Shown: positions 1,977-29,071 of the stretch, in pieces | Layout: every line of letters begins with the position of its first letter | Position numbering within the stretch: position 1 is the stretch's first letter | NCBI RefSeq assembly: GCF_000092105.1 | Contig: NC_014148.1 | Coordinates: 3,150,001 to 3,182,000, forward strand | Direction: 5' to 3' | Length of the DNA stretch: 32,000 bases | From: Planctopirus limnophila DSM 3776 | GTDB lineage: Bacteria; Planctomycetota; Planctomycetia; Planctomycetales; Planctomycetaceae | Notes under the pieces: generated by a model | Databases searched by the model: none | Seen by the model: the letters and a program-made list of their open reading frames with translations, nothing else | What the model was told of the DNA's origin: nothing | Position numbers and translations under genes: made by a program

Positions 1977-2066
1977 CCGCCGTTCGTAAAAATGTGCTGG
2001 CACGCTTCCCCGATATCGAGCATGATCGAGAGAGTGAATTCTCGCACAGGCCACGGGAGCGACACG

Positions 2067-2804
2067 ATGAAGAGCACATCACTTGATCAACGCAGCACTC
2101 GACGTGGCTTCACTGCCCTGGAACTGATCGTCGCCCTCGGCGTAATCGTAGCACTGGTGCTGTTTCTCATGCCCGCCACAAGGCGAGGGCGAGAAGCTGC
2201 AAGGCGAACGCAATGCCGCAACAATCTCAAACAGATTGGCCTGGCATTACATAACTATCACGATCAGCACGGCGTCTTCCCACCGGCATTTACAGTCGAT
2301 GCAGCAGGAAAACCTCTCCATAGCTGGCGCACGCTGATCTTGCCTTATCTCGATCAGGCAGCCCTCTACGACTCCATTGATCTCTCGAAACCATGGGATG
2401 ATCCCGCCAATGCTCACGCGAAAGAAACCGCATTGGCCTGCTACAGGTGCCGAAGCAGTATGCTCCCTGCGGGCATGACAACCTATGTGGGTGTTGTGGG
2501 AGAACAGAACTTCTTTTCACCCAACCATCCCCGGAAACTCTCTGAGTTTCCACCCGATAAGACCTTTCAACTGATCGCGATTTTCGAGCGGGACGACCAA
2601 CGGGCGGTTCACTGGATGTCTCCCGAAGATGGCACAGCCGCCGAACTCCTCACACCTCCGGCCGATAGAAAAACCGTCCACACTGGTGGATTCAATTCAC
2701 TGCTGGCTAATGAGCGTGTCTATTTCGTGAGCAAAGATCTCCCCCAGGAAACACTCAAAAGCCTCCTCTCCATCGACGCCCCACTCTTGAAGGACGACTT
2801 TTAG
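2067..2804 (+). CDS. DUF1559 family protein with type IV pilin-like (prepilin) N-terminal methylation motif
   Basis: RRGFTALELIVALGVIVALVLFL is a G/FTxxE prepilin cleavage-methylation motif followed by a hydrophobic helix. The HNYHDQHGVFPPA block is typical of planctomycete DUF1559. The C-terminal H-X9-DG-like block is HTGGFNSLLANERVYF. Start placed at the ATG at 2067 rather than the ORF-track start at 1992. Confidence 0.85.
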   Translation: MKSTSLDQRSTRRGFTALELIVALGVIVALVLFLMPATRRGREAARRTQCRNNLKQIGLALHNYHDQHGVFPPAFTVDAAGKPLHSWRTLILPYLDQAALYDSIDLSKPWDDPANAHAKETALACYRCRSSMLPAGMTTYVGVVGEQNFFSPNHPRKLSEFPPDKTFQLIAIFERDDQRAVHWMSPEDGTAAELLTPPADRKTVHTGGFNSLLANERVYFVSKDLPQETLKSLLSIDAPLLKDDF

Positions 2805-11363: not shown

Positions 11364-14300
11364 ATGTTCTCCAAAGTCAACGACGCCGAATTCATCACGG
11401 GTGAGCACACCGTCCTCAAGTTCTGGAACGAACGCCACATCTTCCAGAAACTCCGGGCCAAAAACGCCGGCAAACAGCCCTGGAGTTTTTTGGACGGCCC
11501 GATCACTGCCAACAATCCCATGGGTGTCCACCACGCCTGGGGCCGCACCTACAAAGATTCCTTCCAACGCTACTGGGCCATGAACGGCCGCGACCTCCGT
11601 TACCAGAACGGATTCGACTGCCAGGGCCTCTGGGTCGAAGTCGAAGTCGAAAAGCAACTCGGCCTCGGTGCCAAAAGTGCCATCGAAGAGTTCGGCATCG
11701 ATAAGTTCGTGCAGGAGTGTAAACGCCGCGTGCTGAAGTACGCCGCCATCCAGACCGAACAATCCGTCCGCCTCGGCTACTGGATGGAATGGGATCGCCC
11801 GGAAGAACTCCGCAAACTGGCCTCAGCCATTGGCAGCGAAACCCCCGTCACCCTCACCACCCCCAAAGGCATCACCGAGACCGCACCAGCCGAACAACTC
11901 GTCTCACGCCTCGGCAACCCCGATTGGGGCGGCAGCTATTTCACCTTCTCGACCGAAAACAACGAAACCATCTGGACATTCCTCAAAAAATGCTTCGAAC
12001 GCGGCAAGGTCTATCGCGGCCACGACGTCATGCCCTGGTCCGGTCGCGGCGGCAGTGCCTACAGCCAGATGGAAGTCGCCGACGGACGCAAACTCACCAC
12101 CCACCGCGCCCTCTTCGTCCGCTTTCCACTCCTTGATGACGCCGGACAGGAAACCAAGGAAAACCTCCTCATCTGGACGACGACTCCCTGGACGCTCACC
12201 AGCAACGTCGCCGCCATGATCAACCCCGAACTCGAGTATGTGAAACTCCAGTCCAAAAAGGACGGCCTCGTCTACTACTTCGCCAAAGACAACCTCGAAT
12301 TCCAGCGCCTCGCCAAAGAGTTCAAGGAAGGCTTCGGCCGCCCCGAATGGCAATGGCCCAAAGGCACCCCCAAGCTCAAAACCCTCTCGCAGATCTTCAA
12401 GGAATCCGGCGGCTACGAAGTGCTGGAGACCGTCAAGGGCGAAGCCCTCGTCGGCCGCAAATATCGCGGCCCATTTGATGAACTCGACGCGCAGAACTCT
12501 GCAGGAGGTGCCCCACGCTCAAGCGCCTATACGTCATCGCGAGGAAATCTCGAAGATCTTCTCCTTAATGACTTTTATGGACCAACACTGCAAAACGACG
12601 CTTTTGCAGATTCATTGAAGGCGACGTACAATAGTGAAGTTCTAAAAATCAATGAGGCACTCGACAAATACAAAACAGACGATGCCGACATTTATAATGT
12701 CATGGTGGACCTATCGATAGACAAGAAGAATGAACTTGCCGCATCATTTGTAGCAATAAGGTTCGCAATCATCCGTTCCCAGGTTTTGCATTTACTCCGA
12801 AACATTCGAGCAATTCTTAAAAAGCACAAAAACCTGGGGTTCTTCTCCGCAGAACTTAACCCATCAATGACGCTACGTGAGATCAAGGATTTACTAGTTC
12901 GCCTCGGTTCGACCAGTTTTCTAAAATCTGAATGCTGGTTAACACTCGAAGAAGTATCATTGTTGATCGAAGAATTTGAAAATCACGACGAAAGGGAAGA
13001 GTTCGATAATGAGAGAATGATTCAGCACGAGGACTTATTGTTTGAAGGCAATTTATTATTTTCCGAAGGCTTGTTCTGTAACGATTCAACGTCACTTATT
13101 GCGAGACTACACTCGACACTAGTGCTTCAACTGGACACAGAATTGCAGGGATTGGCAAGGCGATCTGCTGTTGAATGCCATCGGGTCATCGACGGTGGTC
13201 GCGACTTCAAAGGGGCACCTAACGTCAAGGAAGGCGAAGGGACAGGCATTGTCCATAGTGCGCCAGGCTGTGGTGATGTCGATCATCAGATCGGCCTCGC
13301 CAACGGTCTCCCCACGATCGCACCGCTCGGCCCAGACGGCAACTTCCTCGAAGGCTTCGGCCCCTTCACCGGCAAGAACGCCGTCCATCCCGACACCGTG
13401 CAACTCGTCATCGACAGCCTCAAGGAGAAAGGCCTGCTCGTCGCCGAAGAGAAGTACCCGCACATCTATCCCTTCTGCTGGCGTACCGGCGATGAACTTG
13501 TCTTCCGTCTCGTCGATGAATGGTTCATCAACATGGACTGGCGCGACGAAATCATGGGCGTCACCAGGCAGATCAACTGGCTTCCCGACAGCATTCAGGG
13601 CCAGGAACGCGAAGTCGAATGGCTCACCAACATGCGCGACTGGATGATCTCCAAGAAACGCTACTGGGGCCTCGCCCTCCCCATCTGGGTCGATGAACTT
13701 ACCGGCGACTTCGAAGTCATCGGCTCTCTCGCCGAACTTAAAGAGCGCGCCCTCGATGGTGGCGAAGGCTGGAACGACTTCCAGGGCCACACGCCCCACA
13801 AACCCTGGATCGACGGCGTCAAGATCCGCAATCCTAAAACGGGCAACCTCATGACCCGCGTGGAAGACGTCGGCAACCCCTGGCTCGACGCCGGCATCGT
13901 CTCCTTCTCCACCATGGGCTACAACACCCATCCCGACATGTGGAAGAAGTGGTACCCCGCCGACCTCGTCACCGAATGTTTCCCCGGCCAGTTCCGCAAC
14001 TGGTTCTACTCCCTCCTCTCCATGGCCACCATGATGGATGGCACGCCGCCCTTCAAAACCCTCCTCGGCCACCGCCTCGTCATGAACGAGCAAGGCCAAC
14101 CCATGCACAAATCCGATGGCACGGCCATCTGGTTTGAAGAAGCCGCCGAACAGATCGGTGTCGACGCCATGCGCTGGATGTATCTCCAGCAGAACCCCGC
14201 TTCCGACCTGCGCTTCGGCACCCGCCATCCCGATGAAAAGGTCACTCTCGAAACGGTCAATGGCCCGACCAACACCACCATCGATGGTGTTCCCACCTGC

Positions 14301-15542
14301 AAAGTCACCAGCGGCCCCGCCGACGAAGTCCGCCGCCAGGTCCTCATCCCGCTGTGGAACTCCTACGCCTTCTTCGTCAACTACGCCCGGCTGGACGAGT
14401 TCGACCCGAATGCGGCGATCGTCCCGGTGGCCGAACGCCCCGAGATCGACCGCTGGCTGCTCTCGAACCTGCAAGCCCTCATTCAGCAGGTCCGCGCTGG
14501 CTTCGAAGCGTTCGACACACCCGCCGCCTGTGCAGCCCTCGCCCGCTTCATTGATGATCTCTCCAACTGGTATATCCGCCGCAATCGCCGCCGCTTCTGG
14601 CGTTCCAAAGATACCGGCGATCTCGACAAGCGTGCAGCCTATCAGACACTCTACGAAACTCTCCTCACCCTCACGAAACTGATGGCACCGATGACGCCGT
14701 TCCTCGCCGAACGGATGTACGGCAACCTCACCTCGGGCCAGCCCGACGCCCCCGAATCGGTCCATCTTTGCGACTACCCCACTGCCGACGAATCGCTGCT
14801 GGATACCTCACTCAACAGGCGGATGTCACTGGCTCAAACGGTCGTACGCGTCGCTCACAAGCTGCGGGAAGTCGCCGATCAACGCGTGCGTCAGCCTTTG
14901 GCCGAACTCCGTTTCGCCACACTCAGCAGCGACGACCTCACTTCGATCAGCTCATTGAAAGACGTCATCGCCGACGAACTCAACGTCAAAGCCGTCAGCG
15001 GCTTTGAATCATTGGGCGATATCGTCAAGTACACCTACAAACCGAACCTCAAAACCCTCGGCCCGAAATACGGCAAGCTCCTCAATGCCTTCCGCGAAGA
15101 ACTTCCCAAGCTCCCGGGCAACCTGCTGGAATCGCTCCGTCGTGGCCAGACGATCAACGCGACGGTTGGCGGCGAAGCAGTCATCATTGGCCCGGACGAT
15201 GTTCTCATCGGAGCCGATCAGGCCGAAGGCTGGGTCGCCGGCGATGAATCCGGCATCCAGGTCGCCCTCTCCACGACCCTCACTCCAGAACTTGTCATGG
15301 AAGGGATGGCCCGCGACTTCATCCGCCACATCCAGCAGGCCCGAAAAGACGCCAACCTGGAAATCCAGCAACGCATCACCGTCAACTACCAGACCAGCGA
15401 ACCGATTGTGGCAGAAATGCTCAAGGAGTGGTCCGACCTGATCTCTAGCGAAACCCTCGCCAACGAGATCACCCCCGCGTCGGGTCTCTCTGGAAAACCC
15501 GTACAAGTCGGCGCAGCCGAGGTTATCATAACAATCAAATAA
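11364..15542 (+). CDS. ileS: isoleucine--tRNA ligase carrying a large internal in-frame insertion
   Basis: 1392 aa. Class I signature region [17 protein letters not shown], editing-domain motifs WTTTPWTL and [18 protein letters not shown]-like QPMHKSDG, and anticodon-binding region [11 protein letters not shown]. The length exceeds what I expect for IleRS because of the segment at about 12510-13170. Confidence 0.95.
12510..13170 (+). other. compositionally foreign in-frame insertion segment within ileS (about aa 383-603)
   Basis: Hand count gives 23/60 G+C for 12601-12660 versus 38/60 for 12301-12360. Codon third positions switch from mostly C/G to mostly A/T (tta, aat, ata, aaa). The reading frame stays open for about 220 codons. 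Boundaries are approximate to within about 20 nt. Confidence 0.8.
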
Positions 15543-15560
15543 CACTGTCTTGACACATTC

Positions 15561-15685
15561 CCGTAGGGCAGGCCCCCGCCTGCCTTCCTTCCGTTTTTAA
15601 CGTAGTATTTAACGTAGGGTGGGTTAAGCAAAGCGCAACCCACCGCATTCAAGTAGGGTGCATGAAGTTCCGACGAAATGCACCA
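15561..15685 (+). repeat. REP-like composite unit 1: three GTAG-headed hairpins
   Basis: Module 1 is GTAG-GGCAGG-cccccg-CCTGCC. Module 2 is GTAG-GGTGGGTT-aagcaaagcgc-AACCCACC. Module 3 is GTAG-GGTGCAT-gaagttccgacgaa-ATGCACC. A short TTAACGTAG / TTTAACGTAG sub-repeat sits between modules 1 and 2. Confidence 0.85.
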
Positions 15686-15788
15686 CAAACAGCAACCAAC
15701 CAGCAACCCACATCCACAAAACAACAACACTCTTCGTGCCATGTTTGCGGCTCTGAGCAAGCATGCCGAATAACATTTTGATCGGAAA

Positions 15789-15914
15789 CCGTAGGGCAGG
15801 CCCCCGCCCTGCCGTCCTTCCGTCTCAAACGTAGTCTCAAACGTAGGGTGGGTTAAGCAAAGCGCAACCCACCGCATTCAAGTAGGGTGCATGAAGTTCC
15901 GACGAAATGCACCA
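15789..15914 (+). repeat. REP-like composite unit 2 (direct repeat of unit 1)
   Basis: Same three modules in the same order. The last 74 nt (15841-15914) are identical to 15612-15685. The first module and the spacer carry a few substitutions and a 1-nt loop indel. Confidence 0.85.
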
Positions 15915-16098
15915 TCCTGATCGTCGATCACATTGAAACCGAATTTCACCATTCGACTGGATCGCCAGAAACTCCCGGATCTGTATCACACCACCGAAAG
16001 CCTCGACTTTACGATCGACGAGGCCTACAAATCCGGCTGGGTCGATGAAGTCGCAAACCTGCCGCTAGCGATATGCCATTTTTCGCAGGGAAACACTC

Positions 16099-23176: not shown

Positions 23177-24958
23177 TCAATCTCTCCAGGGATGAGCGAT
23201 TTCTTTCCAGTATTTGTCGAATTCAAACCCTGGGCTGTTATCTCCATCGTGGCATTGATAGCAGGTTGTCTTTTTCGCCTGATCGAGTGTCACACGCATG
23301 GCCAGCCGAGCGGCGGCCTGCTCTTCTTCAGTCGCTTTGCCACCATTTTCAATCCGCACATGCTCACTCCCGGGAGAGTGACAGTTTTCGCAGCCATTTC
23401 CGAAAAGATGGGCCGATGTTTCCAGATCGCGGTAGCCGGAGTCATACCGCAAAACCTGCTGTGCTTCCCACCCTGTGGTGTGGCAGTTAATACATTCCGG
23501 GTCGTAAATGCGCGAAATATACTCCCCTTCAATCCCCCCACGACCATGGATGATACTTTTAGTCGCTTTGGCGTGGCCGGTTTCTTCCCACTTTTCATAC
23601 GCTTTCGTGTGGCAATCGCCACACACTTTAGAACCTACAAATTTGCGTCCACTCGGGTGAGGAATGACCAGTTCTGGTGTTAAAGAGATTTGTTCAAGCT
23701 CCAGCCGCTTCTGATAGTCGGCCATGAGGTTTTCCATCGGCTTCGTCGCTTTGAACCGGCGATTGTCGAGATCGATCAGTTCGTAACGGAATGGAGTCTT
23801 TACATCATCCGGAAAATAGCCCACCAGCGAAACATACTTACCCTTCTGGCCAGGCTGAATGATCCACGAGCGACCTTCCATCACAGGTTTCGATTGAGGA
23901 TCTTCCGGCCCTCCCGTCGTGACAATCAACTGAAACGCAGGGAACTTGCGGGCGAACTCTTTCGCTTCATCGACAGTCCCATTATTCAACAGAATCAGCA
24001 GATGCGGCTTCTCACCTTTGAACTGCTCAATTGCTTTACGAATCTCTTCATCGGGATCGCTGAAGGTGATGTTGTTGGCCACACCGGCCGGTGCGACATC
24101 ATCTCTTCGGCTTTTCCCAAGGACTGAAACCACACAGGCTTTCACTTCGCCAATCTTGAAGGTCTTTGTACGCAGTGGAGTGCCAAGATCGGGTGATTCA
24201 AAGAAAGTGACATTCGCTCCAGAAATAGCGAGCGACTTCTGCACTTCCTCAGGATCAGCGACCTGTTGTGTCAGCAGGAAGTCGGCCCCCAGACGGAGAT
24301 CCGCAGGCCCCAGGCCAATCACCTGATAGTTGAGTGATCGCAAAGCCGTCAGAATCGCTTCGTACTTGATCTGATCCTGGCGGCGGGAACGCTTGACGAA
24401 TCCCCCGGCATCCAGCCCCGCGACGGGCCAACCTCTTTTGGTAAGCCGCTGGAAAAGATCGAGCCTGCGCGACATCCCACCCGATTGGGTTAATGAGCAA
24501 CCGCAAGGTTCGAGATAGCCATTCGTTTCTGCCGAGAGCATGAGGACCGCTTGCGGGCGAGGCCAGTCTTCCGCCACAGGCGGTTCACTGGTATGGCTGG
24601 TGGACTGGGATGTGGCTTCTGATGATTTGGTATCCGAAGGAAGCTGCCCGGCTGGCACTTGAGCCGCCTGTGCAAGGGTCGTATTCCAGGGGATGACGGA
24701 CAATACAGAGTTCTGTAACGGCAAAGAAGAGCTGGAGACAGCTTGTGTTGAAGTTCGGCTTGCCAGTTGTGCATCGCTGGGAACAAGTCGCGTGACCCAC
24801 GCCCCTCCAGTGAGCAGAGTTGTCAGGCAAGCCAGTCCCAGAAGACAGGGCCAGAGCACCCGGCCCAATTTAGGTGAAGTGGACTGCGCGGGGCGATTTT
24901 GACCACCCAGAGGACAGGAAATAGCACGCTGACGACGATGACGAGGCATAGCAGACAT
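23177..24958 (-). CDS. membrane-anchored fusion: degenerate metallophosphoesterase / 5'-nucleotidase-like domain plus tetraheme c-type cytochrome (cytochrome c554-like)
   Basis: Four CXXCH motifs in the C-terminal ~150 aa (CGDCH, CINCH, CENCH, CYQCH). The N-terminal domain carries the ETNGYLEPCGC motif, and one TM/signal anchor is present (VLWPCLLGLACLTTLL). Start is uncertain: ATG at 24958 or 24949, or the TTG at 25084 given by the ORF track. Confidence 0.85.
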   Translation of the reverse strand: MSAMPRHRRQRAISCPLGGQNRPAQSTSPKLGRVLWPCLLGLACLTTLLTGGAWVTRLVPSDAQLASRTSTQAVSSSSLPLQNSVLSVIPWNTTLAQAAQVPAGQLPSDTKSSEATSQSTSHTSEPPVAEDWPRPQAVLMLSAETNGYLEPCGCSLTQSGGMSRRLDLFQRLTKRGWPVAGLDAGGFVKRSRRQDQIKYEAILTALRSLNYQVIGLGPADLRLGADFLLTQQVADPEEVQKSLAISGANVTFFESPDLGTPLRTKTFKIGEVKACVVSVLGKSRRDDVAPAGVANNITFSDPDEEIRKAIEQFKGEKPHLLILLNNGTVDEAKEFARKFPAFQLIVTTGGPEDPQSKPVMEGRSWIIQPGQKGKYVSLVGYFPDDVKTPFRYELIDLDNRRFKATKPMENLMADYQKRLELEQISLTPELVIPHPSGRKFVGSKVCGDCHTKAYEKWEETGHAKATKSIIHGRGGIEGEYISRIYDPECINCHTTGWEAQQVLRYDSGYRDLETSAHLFGNGCENCHSPGSEHVRIENGGKATEEEQAAARLAMRVTLDQAKKTTCYQCHDGDNSPGFEFDKYWKEIAHPWRD

Positions 24959-25084
24959 CCCTGGCGAGGCATGCAAAAACCAGAAATCTGGTTCATCCAA
25001 CGCCATTGCACAAAATTTTCGACCTTGAAACACCCCTGGTGGCAGTGCCTGTGCAGTTCTCGACAATCCAATATCAACTGTCAA

Positions 25085-26386: not shown

Positions 26387-29071
26387 TCACTGGACTCGCC
26401 CATTGTTCAAAGGATCTTCATCCAGCTTTTCTGCTTGCAGTCGCTTGAGTCGCTCGACAACTTCTTCAGGAAGCACACGATCCGAGTGGCCCAATTGCCG
26501 ATTCAATTCATTCTGCTTCAAAGCCAGATTCGCTTCAATTGAGGCCTCTTTTCGCTTCCCTGCCAATGCCAACGCTTCCGCAGCCCCAGCCAGAAGTCGA
26601 CTCGAACTGCGATATCTGCGATTCGCTTCCTCAAAAGATTCCACAGCCTTCTCGGCAAAATTTTGTCGCTCAGCAGGACTGCTCACAGCTCTTTCAAAAT
26701 AGGCACGCGCCAACTGCTCATGAGGCCGGTAACTGTGAAAATCGCGTTGACTGGCAGATTTCATCCATTTTTCACCGTTCGCCCAATCCGTCGAACTTTC
26801 GGCATTCGAAAACCACGCCATGCCAGCCGTCTCGGCCAGGCTGGGAGACCACTCATCCAATTCAGCCAATTTCACCATTTCCCGTATGGCAGCACCTCGC
26901 GTCGAGGCTGGTCGAGCTGACATCTGGATGCGCCCCTGTGAGACCATCCAGACTGGCCATGCTCCCCAGATCGAAAGGACCATCACCAGCACCATCGCCC
27001 CGGGGAGTAATCGACTTCCCCACCTGAAAATCGACGAGATCAGAGCCTCGCCGAAACCAGCTTTGACAGCCTGAAATTCTCCGGGTTCTCTCATCTGTGT
27101 AACAACGGCACCTACCGGCCATGTCGATAAAGTAATCAACAGCAGCCATAATCCCAGGATGGCCGCCATGCCAAACCCACCAGCCGCCAGGAGATTCACT
27201 CCCAGAGCGAACGCCGCAGCTGGAAATGCCAGATCTCCCCAACTGTGAGCGAAGCCACGAGCATCCCGATCGGCCCTCAATTCCTGCGGGGCAGCAGGCG
27301 ATTCATCGGCCGTCTCTGACTTCATCGATGAGTTCAATCGCCACCGGTCGATGATCAGATACAGCCCAGTCCAGAAGACACCAAACACAATGAGCGCATC
27401 GTCAAAGACCCCATCCAGCAGAAACCGGCCCCACCAGGCAATCGCCAGACTGCCAGCACCAGCCCACAGTGGCCAATTTGAAGGAAGGTGGATAGCTCGA
27501 GAATACTGAATGAAAAGTCTTTCCGACGAAGTTTGATCATTCACCACTGGCGACGAGTTCAATAACCCTTTCCCCAAAGCGAATAACCCAGTTCCCGCGA
27601 GCACCAGCAACCCCGCGAGCGACAAAACTCCTCCCGAACTCCACGCTTCAAGAACCATGTTATGAGGGTCAGCGATCTCTTCGCTCGAACTCGGGAGTTT
27701 GTACGACAAATAAACGCTGCGAAAGTTTCCGGGGCCCACACCCAACCAGGGGTGATCTGCCAGCATCTGCAATGTCGCGACCCAGTATTCCAGCCGATAT
27801 CGCAGTGATTTCGGGGCTTCTGTGATCACCTCCAGATCCAGCCCGCCTCTCCAGACCACCAGGCCGACCAGCAGAAGCATGGATCCTGTTCCAGCACCGA
27901 AGATCCACAACCACGATCTTGACGAAACACGCAGCTCGCCCACAGCTTTCCACTGGCTGACAAGTGGCCGCACAGCCAGCAGCAGCATCGTGACAGCCAG
28001 TGCCAGCACTGCCGTACGGGATTTCGTCAGCAGCAAGGTCCAGCCTCCCAATAGCCATGCCGACAGCAGAATCCAGGTGAACGGGCGGGAAAGATCTGGC
28101 CAGGACCACATCGTGCGCTGCTGAGTCACCTCTGGCCAGGCAAACAGACTCAATACCAGCAGAACCAGTAGGATAGCCGCAAATGTATTCGCCAAAGCGC
28201 AAAAGCCATAAGGTTCACTGCTGGTCAATCGTTGAAAGAACGCTCTGCGAGCATGCAGTTCTGTCGGGATGCCATCGCTTTCCAGCTTTTGCCTGAGCTG
28301 TGAAATCTTTGACTCATCTTCTGCGGATCGCTCCTGCAGACCCTCCAGTCGATCCAGTTCCTGTATCGCTTTGATATATCGACCGGAGATCGCAGGCAGG
28401 CCAATCTCATGCTGATACAGCCCCAGTACAGACATTGACAGTAATGTCGTGATCACAAACGGCCAGATCGCACTCAGGCTGATCACGTGGCCCGGTCGTT
28501 CCGGCAATCGAGGTGCCAGACGCCACAGCACGCAGGCTCCCATGGCCAGAGAAAAAAACTCAATCAGCAGATTGGCAGCCGCTCGTCGATCTCCCTGAGC
28601 CAGCCAGACGTGAATTGTCCCAGCCACCTGACCAGCAGTCAGCAGCAGCAATCCCCAGACAAACCCTGAACGCCAGGCACGCGAAGCAAGCTCTGTTTTA
28701 GGCAACAGGATCAGCAGCAGCGCCGATGTGGCCATCGACAGAATCGCCAGCCAGAGGGATTCCCCCATCACTGCGGCTTCAGGAGGTGTCCAGAACCTCG
28801 CAAAAAAAAGACTGGCGAGCAGCACGACCAGCCAACCCGCCACGCGCTCTTGCGATCGCGAAGGCTCAGCCAGCCCACCCGCATCCTGCACCATTCGCTG
28901 ACCTGTCGAAGTTCCAGCCCGCCGGGTTTCAACAACAGGTTTCTTTCCTCTCGCAGACATCCACAACCATCCCGGAGGACGCCCCTTTTCCAGATCTGAG
29001 CGAACAGGAATCGCCTGCTCCCCGAACAACAGACTCTGGATCGAAAACGCCATCGTTCGCAAAGAAGGCAT
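26387..29071 (-). CDS. O-antigen ligase-like (Wzy_C) polytopic membrane protein with C-terminal TPR-like helical repeats
   Basis: 894 aa with more than 10 TM helices. The Wzy_C-type block is ADPHNMVLEAWSSGGVLSLAGLLVL. The C-terminal soluble region is Ala/Glu/Arg-rich with TPR-like repeats (ARAYFERAV...AEKAVESFEEANRRY...AAEALALAGKRKEA). Confidence 0.85.
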   Translation of the reverse strand: MPSLRTMAFSIQSLLFGEQAIPVRSDLEKGRPPGWLWMSARGKKPVVETRRAGTSTGQRMVQDAGGLAEPSRSQERVAGWLVVLLASLFFARFWTPPEAAVMGESLWLAILSMATSALLLILLPKTELASRAWRSGFVWGLLLLTAGQVAGTIHVWLAQGDRRAAANLLIEFFSLAMGACVLWRLAPRLPERPGHVISLSAIWPFVITTLLSMSVLGLYQHEIGLPAISGRYIKAIQELDRLEGLQERSAEDESKISQLRQKLESDGIPTELHARRAFFQRLTSSEPYGFCALANTFAAILLVLLVLSLFAWPEVTQQRTMWSWPDLSRPFTWILLSAWLLGGWTLLLTKSRTAVLALAVTMLLLAVRPLVSQWKAVGELRVSSRSWLWIFGAGTGSMLLLVGLVVWRGGLDLEVITEAPKSLRYRLEYWVATLQMLADHPWLGVGPGNFRSVYLSYKLPSSSEEIADPHNMVLEAWSSGGVLSLAGLLVLAGTGLFALGKGLLNSSPVVNDQTSSERLFIQYSRAIHLPSNWPLWAGAGSLAIAWWGRFLLDGVFDDALIVFGVFWTGLYLIIDRWRLNSSMKSETADESPAAPQELRADRDARGFAHSWGDLAFPAAAFALGVNLLAAGGFGMAAILGLWLLLITLSTWPVGAVVTQMREPGEFQAVKAGFGEALISSIFRWGSRLLPGAMVLVMVLSIWGAWPVWMVSQGRIQMSARPASTRGAAIREMVKLAELDEWSPSLAETAGMAWFSNAESSTDWANGEKWMKSASQRDFHSYRPHEQLARAYFERAVSSPAERQNFAEKAVESFEEANRRYRSSSRLLAGAAEALALAGKRKEASIEANLALKQNELNRQLGHSDRVLPEEVVERLKRLQAEKLDEDPLNNGRVQ

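Follow-up and report, generated by a model that had tools for sequence, protein, structure and literature searches.

In-frame insertions that invite comparison with the segment analysed here, a 648-nucleotide cassette within ileS, the isoleucyl-tRNA synthetase (IleRS) gene of Planctopirus limnophila DSM 3776, include (i) lineage-specific insertions of bacterial RNA polymerase, (ii) Rickettsia palindromic elements (RPEs), (iii) hypervariable central cassettes of surface or specificity proteins, (iv) inteins, and (v) the INS subdomain of IleRS itself. The cassette lies in a 32,000-nucleotide stretch of contig NC_014148.1 (assembly GCF_000092105.1, positions 3,150,001 to 3,182,000 of the forward strand), which is called the window here and from whose first letter all coordinates are counted. 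It is probably a translated helical domain and one allele of an IleRS insertion family that is laterally exchanged among the Planctomycetaceae, with a likely role as an accessory interaction module.

Lineage-specific insertions reportedly occur in the beta and beta′ subunits of bacterial RNA polymerase. Like the cassette, these are large folded domains in surface loops of an essential, conserved enzyme, and they are lineage-restricted and dispensable for core catalysis, as the cassette appears to be. Unlike it, they are stable within lineages and have recognisable repeated folds, whereas the cassette is polymorphic at ~95% identity, with barely alignable, apparently laterally exchanged alleles and no known fold. 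RPEs are reportedly in-frame selfish repeats in protein-coding genes. Like the cassette, they are inserted in frame, are translated, and are tolerated by essential proteins in regions at the surface, but they are palindromic, ~30–50 aa long, and multi-copy across genes, whereas the cassettes measure 90–215 aa, have no inverted repeats, and occupy one site of one gene in the DNA examined. Hypervariable central cassettes with conserved ends are found in the D2/D3 domains of flagellin and in the target-recognition domains of HsdS, where, as here, conserved flanks permit recombinational swapping of a divergent, variable-length, often AT-shifted middle and one species holds several alleles. Those are surface-exposed or specificity proteins with an obvious selective agent, whereas the host of the present cassette is a cytosolic housekeeping synthetase. 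Inteins likewise stand in frame within conserved regions of essential proteins, are distributed patchily, with the site filled in some alleles and vacant in others, and reach the same site by lateral spread; they have splicing motifs, a Hint fold, and a homing endonuclease, none of which was found in the cassette, and they are removed from the protein, whereas the cassette is predicted to be retained. INS, as described in a preprint (bioRxiv 10.64898/2026.02.03.703510), is an optional, ancient insertion of ~80 aa in the anticodon-recognition domain ARD2 of IleRS2/IleRS-A that contacts the tRNA D-loop. INS resembles the cassette in belonging to the same enzyme family and in being optional, with repeated losses in some members and retention in others, but it sits in the C-terminal ARD2 and not in the editing domain. 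Full-text literature searches for an editing-domain insertion returned nothing relevant, and term searches of the papers on INS and on the GXHH signature discussed below gave no passage on such a cassette and no occurrence of "Planctomyc". Placed among these systems, the cassette ranks as a lineage-specific insertion domain with the behaviour of a hypervariable cassette that recombines.

Host gene and insert

The host is a type-2 IleRS. Pfam assigns tRNA-synt_1 (8e-77), Anticodon_1, and DUF5915 to the ileS product, the last being a C-terminal domain typical of type-2 IleRS, and the class I catalytic domain, the editing motifs, the anticodon-binding domain, and the type-2 C-terminal domain are all present. 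The cassette occupies a surface loop of the editing domain, with ~25 residues between it and the GTGIVH motif downstream, and the features that define its setting are as follows.

11364–15542, plus strand: ileS, type-2 isoleucyl-tRNA synthetase and cassette host (open reading frame (ORF) of 1392 aa; Pfam; homologues 97–98% identical outside the insert).
12174–12194, plus strand: WTTTPWT, the threonine-rich editing-site motif, aa 271–277 (motif location; alignment to the IleRS editing domains of Thermus thermophilus and Staphylococcus aureus).
12468–12515, plus strand: left flank, the conserved and retained left half of the ancestral loop, aa 369–384, with raised inter-strain divergence (loop comparison, DNA alignment, mismatch density).
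12516–13163, plus strand: the cassette, 216 codons, 41.8% GC, third-position GC (GC3) 0.44, open in the ileS frame only and predicted to encode an all-helical domain (composition, alignment, AlphaFold2).
13164–13256, plus strand: right flank, from the retained right half of the loop to the GTGIVH editing motif (13239–13256), with raised divergence and a probable zone of recombination breakpoints (DNA alignment, mismatch density).

In the protein, GPFDELDAQ occupies aa 369–377, the right-hand landmark aa 601–612, and GTGIVH begins at aa 626. Sequence alignment with the IleRS chains 1ILE, 1FFY, and 8C8U places the T. thermophilus counterpart of the loop between YTPPYPQ (to residue 295) and ADYVSQEDGTGIVH (from residue 306), a stretch of ~10 residues. 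The P. limnophila cassette (aa 385–600) replaces eight loop residues and adds a net 208 aa when compared with a sister strain whose loop is empty; its junctions, marked by a slash, read GGAP/RSSAY and GLARR/SAVECH.

The composition of the insert departs from that of its host gene and of the entire window. In 150-nucleotide windows, GC drops from ~0.60 to 0.39–0.43 across ~12525–13125, and windowed GC3 within ileS falls from ~0.8 to ~0.4 at the insert. The insert as a whole has a GC of 0.418 versus 0.595 in the remaining ileS, and the lowest value of any other 648-nucleotide window in the 32 kb is 0.471 (z = −4.6 for the insert). Its GC3 lies below both that of the remaining ileS (0.76) and those of all 20 other ORFs of the window (0.54–0.73). 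Leucine codons follow the same division: the host portion uses CTC for 79 of 109 leucines and never CTA or TTA, and the insert uses all six codons about evenly.

Despite this AT richness, the insert is free of stop codons in the ileS frame (0 in 216 codons), with 6–21 stops in each of the other five frames. Its composition predicts ~13 stops, the probability of finding none is ~1e-6, and not one of 5000 shuffles remained open. Judged by these frame statistics, the cassette is translated, a conclusion supported by the open frame in all 25 independent cassettes described below. The first-pass annotation, made from the letters of the window, had described the 1392-aa ORF and its landmarks with correct coordinates, and its hand counts of GC (0.38 at 12601–12660 and 0.63 at 12301–12360) are exact. 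It had also reported a switch of third positions toward A/T, which windowed computation shows to be a real composition shift, a frame kept open for ~220 codons, which the stop statistics bear out, and a short stretch before GTGIVH in T. thermophilus, which agrees with the alignment.

Loop alleles across the Planctomycetaceae

The closest IleRS homologues in a collection of 5.8 billion proteins are 97–98% identical to the P. limnophila enzyme outside the block and differ in length at the loop. Two of them, P0001 (1188 aa) and P0003 (1184 aa), have 39 and 35 residues, respectively, between PFDEL and HRVIDGG, and P0002 (1280 aa) carries an unrelated-looking insert of 96 residues at the identical place. 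In the majority of the 120 top-ranked relatives, the anchors PFD[DE]L and HRVIDGG are separated by exactly 35 residues, and in ten by 127–248 (90–215 extra), with a different stretch in each. A scan of one genome per GTDB species yielded 80 loci, with occupied loops also in the isolates Planctopirus hydrillae JC280, Planctomicrobium sp. SH664, and strain SH248, as well as in many metagenome-assembled genomes (MAGs). Proteins and genome loci pooled, at least 25 distinct large inserts of 90–215 aa occur at the loop, and no other site of the IleRS alignment has insertions of more than ~50 aa. Smaller insertion loops of 26–49 residues are seen in subsets of Planctomycetaceae at query aa ~260–263, ~1014, and ~1123–1126.

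The commonest loop state is a fixed 25 residues, which is the ancestral state of the site. Occupied alleles usually keep the left (AQxxPGGxP) and right ([ST][GA]VxCH) halves of this loop and replace the middle ~8 residues. In every cassette measured at the DNA level, GC3 is lower than in the host gene (0.27–0.62 in cassettes, 0.51–0.82 in hosts). The P. limnophila insert shows the same traits: AQNSAGGAP is kept on its left and the right half is kept as well, its GC3 of 0.44 compares with 0.76 in the host gene, and it has the core motifs and the terminal helix (L-x2-E-L) detailed below. Collectively, the inserts appear from their sequences to constitute an undescribed, very rapidly diverging insertion-domain family that is confined so far to Planctomycetaceae IleRS. 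Several loops that lack a large cassette (P0005, P0025, P0030/L021, L056, and L074) carry expansions of 10–25 aa built on the Pro/Gly-rich unit LAPG[DE]SPGAK, sometimes repeated, a further form of variation of this loop that is of low complexity.

Homology among the inserts was sought by all-against-all phmmer and jackhmmer searches in a database with 40 shuffled decoys per insert. Only real inserts matched one another, and they fall into five clusters.

Cluster A: L015 and P0094 (phmmer/jackhmmer).
Cluster B: L033, L019, and L022 (phmmer/jackhmmer).
Cluster C: L008, L012, L009, and L006 (phmmer/jackhmmer; linked to D on iteration).
Cluster D: L020, L013, and L016 (phmmer/jackhmmer; linked to C on iteration).
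Cluster E: the P. limnophila allele and L010 (phmmer E = 1e-4).

Comparison of the E profile with the joint C and D profile by hhalign gave a score of 33.4 (P = 2e-4) over 62 columns. The 60 controls scored far lower: 14.6 for the reversed alignment and, for the 59 column-shuffled ones, 10.1 on average and 15.0 at the maximum. Nearly all alleles share three elements in the same order, and a core motif of ~50 residues plus a C-terminal helix is present in most; the positions of these elements in P. limnophila are given here.

12828–12866, plus strand: core motif 1, an extended loop, K-x-h-G-h-F-x3-h-P-x-F (alignments; non-helical in both structural models).
12873–12983, plus strand: core motif 2, a helix, a short turn helix, and a helix, h-x2-h-x3-L-x2-L-G-h-x7-W, the best-conserved part of the family (alignments, hhalign, model confidence of 91–95).
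13086–13163, plus strand: C-terminal return helix, aa 575–600, L-x3-L-x2-E-L-x2-h-P-x-R-S (alignments, AlphaFold2).

The extent of allelic variation is most evident among close strains. The ileS genes of the window, of L001 (MAG D1_MAG_00040), and of L002 (an SRA assembly) are 93–95% identical at the nucleotide level outside the loop, that of P. hydrillae (L013) is ~95% identical in segments away from it, and the four genes are 94–97% identical in sampled segments away from the loop. These four Planctopirus-clade genomes nonetheless have four loop states: a 208-aa E-type allele, a 96-aa allele, a 135-aa D-type allele (P. hydrillae), and an empty loop. Mismatch density is raised only in the last ~60 nucleotides before and the first ~120–180 nucleotides after the loop, relative to a background of 2–5 per 60 nucleotides. 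Because the increase is limited to the immediate flanks, it points to short patches exchanged by homologous recombination, with the breakpoints falling within these conserved flanks. A second divergence hotspot in the ileS of this clade lies at ~11814–11903 (aa ~150–180), with 10–24 mismatches per 90 nucleotides versus ~2–6, and involves no change in length.

Over the wider family, hosts with a core identity of 96–98% carry unalignable inserts, whereas recognisably homologous inserts (24–37% identity) reside in hosts that are 72–82% identical. In a neighbour-joining tree of the host proteins, the insert families are dispersed over the branches, often with empty alleles as their sisters. In-situ divergence that erased similarity at 2–4% host divergence could not have left similarity at 18–28%. 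From these sequence comparisons, it seems that allelic replacement, in the form of either lateral exchange or long-lived polymorphism, must be invoked, and the phylogeny of the cassette appears decoupled from that of the host gene.

Predicted fold, searches, and genomic surroundings

The cassette is predicted to encode a folded, all-helical domain in which variable long N- and C-terminal helices surround a small conserved helix-loop-helix core. For the P. limnophila allele, AlphaFold2 was run on an 11-row alignment without the closest homologue, L010, and returned a mean predicted local distance difference test score (pLDDT) of 76 and a predicted template modelling score (pTM) of 0.65. With model residue i corresponding to aa 382 + i, helices span insert residues 27–53, 59–108, 122–131, 141–158, and 193–218, and an acidic low-confidence stretch covers 159–192. 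Two segments of this model lie outside the shared elements.

12588–12833, plus strand: long N-terminal helices, a predicted stalk, aa 409–435 and 441–490, the second being 50 residues long with a pLDDT of ~85–94 (DSSP and pLDDT).
12984–13085, plus strand: acidic low-confidence segment specific to the P. limnophila allele (pLDDT 40–51; missing from shorter alleles).

The C-type allele L008 was modelled with a pLDDT of 77 and a pTM of 0.71. Its elements run in the order N-terminal helices, long helix, extended loop (motif 1), 10-residue helix (motif 2), 4-residue helix, helix, and long C-terminal helix, and the order of helices around the two motifs is the same in both models.

Searches for relatives of the P. 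limnophila allele returned none among 5.8e9 proteins (word-indexed search) or 1.84e9 cluster representatives (full phmmer), and tblastn of phage and plasmid collections as well as scans of metagenome and viral contigs were empty. A metagenome scan with the P. hydrillae allele likewise gave no match. The profile of all 25 cassettes found nothing at E ≤ 1 in the 5.8e9 proteins, a database size for which its scores are probably too low. Pfam, PHROGs, and PADLOC returned single chance-level matches only for the 25 cassettes, Foldseek of both models against PDB and BFVD retrieved only generic helical bundles (E > 0.2), and the core profile found nothing significant among PDB sequences (best E 0.07). 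Three known domains were considered and set aside. The EF-hand accounts for the best match of the core profile (E = 0.07), which covers the EF-hand linker only and has no Pfam counterpart. The HEPN match in Foldseek (E = 4.5) is not significant, and the Rx4H sequence (RSQVLH) of the P. limnophila allele is not conserved in the others. The LxxLG motif resembles SAP/HeH in shape, a likeness that has no Pfam support.

The genes around ileS are housekeeping genes (PPDK, a hydrolase, a GHMP kinase, Dabb, methionine aminopeptidase, RuvB, and cytochromes) and are syntenic with sister strains; no mobile-element genes occur near ileS, and no tRNA or Rfam elements were found in the 32-kb window. Antisense and off-frame ORFs inside ileS include one of 548 aa at 13119–14765 (minus strand), one at 11904–12353 (minus strand), and others. 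These long ORFs are probably shadow ORFs of GC-rich coding sequence and not genes; the 548-aa ORF starts just within the downstream end of the AT-rich cassette. Downstream of ileS, a 557-nucleotide spacer (15543–16098) is all that separates it from the methionine aminopeptidase gene in the window, and the MAG locus L001 (95% identical) has three extra genes in that spacer (L001 5509–8695) that encode a 382-aa protein, a 101-aa protein, and a DUF4328 protein. This difference is a strain-level indel directly downstream of ileS. Other genes of the window encode a DUF1559/SBP_bac_10 protein (1992–2804, plus strand), DUF1559 being typical of Planctomycetota, a multihaem cytochrome with c554/c7 domains (23177–25084, minus strand), and a large Wzy_C O-antigen-ligase-like protein (26387–29071, minus strand).

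The class I HIGH signature of the ileS product has the non-canonical form GVHH (11523–11534, aa 54–57). Brkic et al. (2023, PMC10485003) associate the GXHH form with hyper-resistance of IleRS2 to mupirocin. Because GVHH fits this form, the P. limnophila IleRS is predicted to belong to the hyper-resistant type.

Competing explanations and significance

The main rival to an exchanged accessory module is a helical domain that rides in a permissive surface loop as a neutral or selfish passenger. It would have entered on one or a few occasions, would serve the host in no way and evolve almost freely within the limits of foldability, and, as most lineages lose it, would pass between strains only by hitch-hiking on ordinary homologous recombination in ileS. 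Such a passenger, a somewhat unlikely explanation, would sit well with sister strains that manage without the cassette, with the extreme sequence divergence and poor codon adaptation, with the lack of a match to any functional family or fold, and with the short low-complexity expansions that the same loop accepts. Drift alone, however, would hardly maintain three non-empty alleles and an empty one in a single clade of ~95% identity with locally raised flank divergence, and both the ~50-residue core and terminal helix, recognisable across hosts only 72–82% identical, and the confident models of conserved topology speak against it. That AT-rich foreign DNA entered this genome alone, in one recent horizontal transfer and as a new kind of in-frame selfish insertion, which the first-pass annotation had listed among its possibilities, is very improbable. 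The P. limnophila allele has no relative in any protein, phage, plasmid, or metagenome collection searched and is missing from the closest strains, and nothing else in the window deviates as strongly in GC and codon usage. Yet its homologue L010 and its profile-level kinship to the C and D cassettes occur at the identical loop position, and the GC3 depression common to all other cassettes measured at the DNA level makes a family-wide pattern that largely refutes this explanation. The junctions also lack the marks of a mobile element: a search for signals like those of insertion sequences, miniature inverted-repeat transposable elements, or RPEs found only chance-level repeats of 10–14 nucleotides, none at the junctions, and neither terminal inverted repeats nor target duplications. 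No second copy of the segment exists elsewhere in the window or at any of 82 related loci outside the ileS site, and these loci hold no silent donor copy of any other cassette either. A diversity-generating retroelement was rejected as well, as the window contains no repeat of the insert and the neighbouring genes include no reverse transcriptase.

Two further alternatives would remove the cassette from the mature enzyme or from the genome. An excised intein or self-splicing intron is suggested by the in-frame position in a conserved essential gene and by the intein-like patchy distribution, but is extremely improbable. In Rfam cmscan, no family, whether a group I or II intron or any other, matched 12300–13400 at E ≤ 1, and none matched the whole window at gathering thresholds; moreover, an intron would not need the open frame that the cassette maintains. 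The 25 cassettes have no Pfam match to Hint, intein, LAGLIDADG/HNH, or homing-endonuclease families; the N-terminal Cys/Ser nucleophile context and the C-terminal His-Asn followed by Cys/Ser/Thr are both missing; and the models are all-helical in place of the Hint beta fold. An assembly chimera or sequencing artefact, which an abrupt composition break and an exact allele known only from this window might suggest, can practically be dismissed. The frame is exactly preserved, each junction keeps its half of the ancestral loop, independent assemblies, isolate and complete genomes among them, have analogous cassettes at a position that agrees to the codon, and neither a 216-codon open frame nor a confidently folded domain with family motifs is expected of an artefact.

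The central proposal of the first-pass annotation, an acquired, unrecognised domain in an editing-domain loop, is upheld by these comparisons. The helix-rich peptide with an acidic patch that it described has the patch and is given its helices by AlphaFold2, and the statement that no domain is recognisable in it agrees with the empty protein, Pfam, PHROGs, PADLOC, and fold searches. Its suggestion of a singular or precise recent insertion gives way to an allele that belongs to a recurrent family of distantly homologous cassettes at this loop in many Planctomycetaceae, and the suggested excision at the RNA or protein level is unsupported by intron matches or intein junction residues. The description as compositionally foreign holds for the deviance and not for a foreign donor, which is not proven, since all cassettes measured at the DNA level have lower GC3 than their host gene. 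The novelty claimed for the segment survives, in that the closest strains have no such segment or a different one and a homologous segment is present in only ~8% of the top 120 protein matches, an estimate of occupancy biased by the ranking of matches.

Besides this ranking bias, several points weigh against an exchanged accessory module. Cluster B is tied to the other inserts by eye and MAFFT only, and because hhalign does not see this link, more than one cassette origin is possible. All homologous insert pairs, at 22–37% identity, are saturated with respect to the ratio of nonsynonymous to synonymous substitutions. The picture of a stalk with the core as its tip, as well as the suggested position relative to the tRNA, derives from the order of secondary-structure elements only. 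Most alleles are acidic (isoelectric point ~5), which makes a simple kind of tRNA-binding arm unlikely, and no partner gene was identified in the flanks.

The explanation preferred here is that genomes would swap alleles of the loop, the empty one included, through short-patch homologous recombination whose breakpoints lie in the conserved flanks, and that strains ~95% identical in the remaining ileS would differ completely at the loop because of this exchange. The AT-rich, codon-unadapted composition would be a property of the whole family that results from fast amino-acid turnover and weak codon selection, possibly together with repeated import. Weak codon selection on a rapidly changing segment accounts most simply for the AT shift and does not require a single recent foreign acquisition; this reading draws on the established link between the conservation of a site and codon optimality. 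The domain is probably dispensable for core catalysis, because sister strains have an empty loop. It most likely serves as an accessory module for interaction, in which the small conserved core, carried on variable helices, is the presumed working surface and would bind a protein or RNA partner. Diversifying or frequency-dependent selection on this surface would fit best, because a single clade contains several old alleles as well as a null allele, and alleles pass laterally between genomes. The cassette may in this way serve as an interface for conflict or interaction on an enzyme already known as a target of antibiotics. A bolder version, which must be rated unlikely, sees in it a hypervariable, exchanged shield, decoy, or sensor that alters how toxins, phage factors, or natural inhibitors engage the IleRS editing domain, with several alleles and an empty one kept by negative frequency-dependent selection. 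If true, this would be, to our knowledge, the first immune-like polymorphic cassette described in a housekeeping aminoacyl-tRNA synthetase.

Aminoacyl-tRNA synthetases are the textbook case of slowly evolving, vertically inherited enzymes, and their idiosyncratic insertions are normally fixed in large clades. In contrast, a domain of 100–215 residues within the proofreading domain of IleRS behaves as a swappable allele among ~95% identical strains and is shared across hosts that are 72–82% identical. For analyses of horizontal transfer, the cassette carries a caution, as composition-based calls can flag fast-evolving, codon-unadapted segments that are native to a lineage. Should the cassette be neutral, it would provide a clean natural case of permissive loops in essential enzymes that gain and shed domains. 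If it is functional, an unrecognised selective pressure, such as a partner, an inhibitor, a toxin, or a phage factor, would act on the editing-domain surface of IleRS, and the Planctomycetaceae would offer a natural domain-swap series for the study of editing-domain appendages and fidelity.

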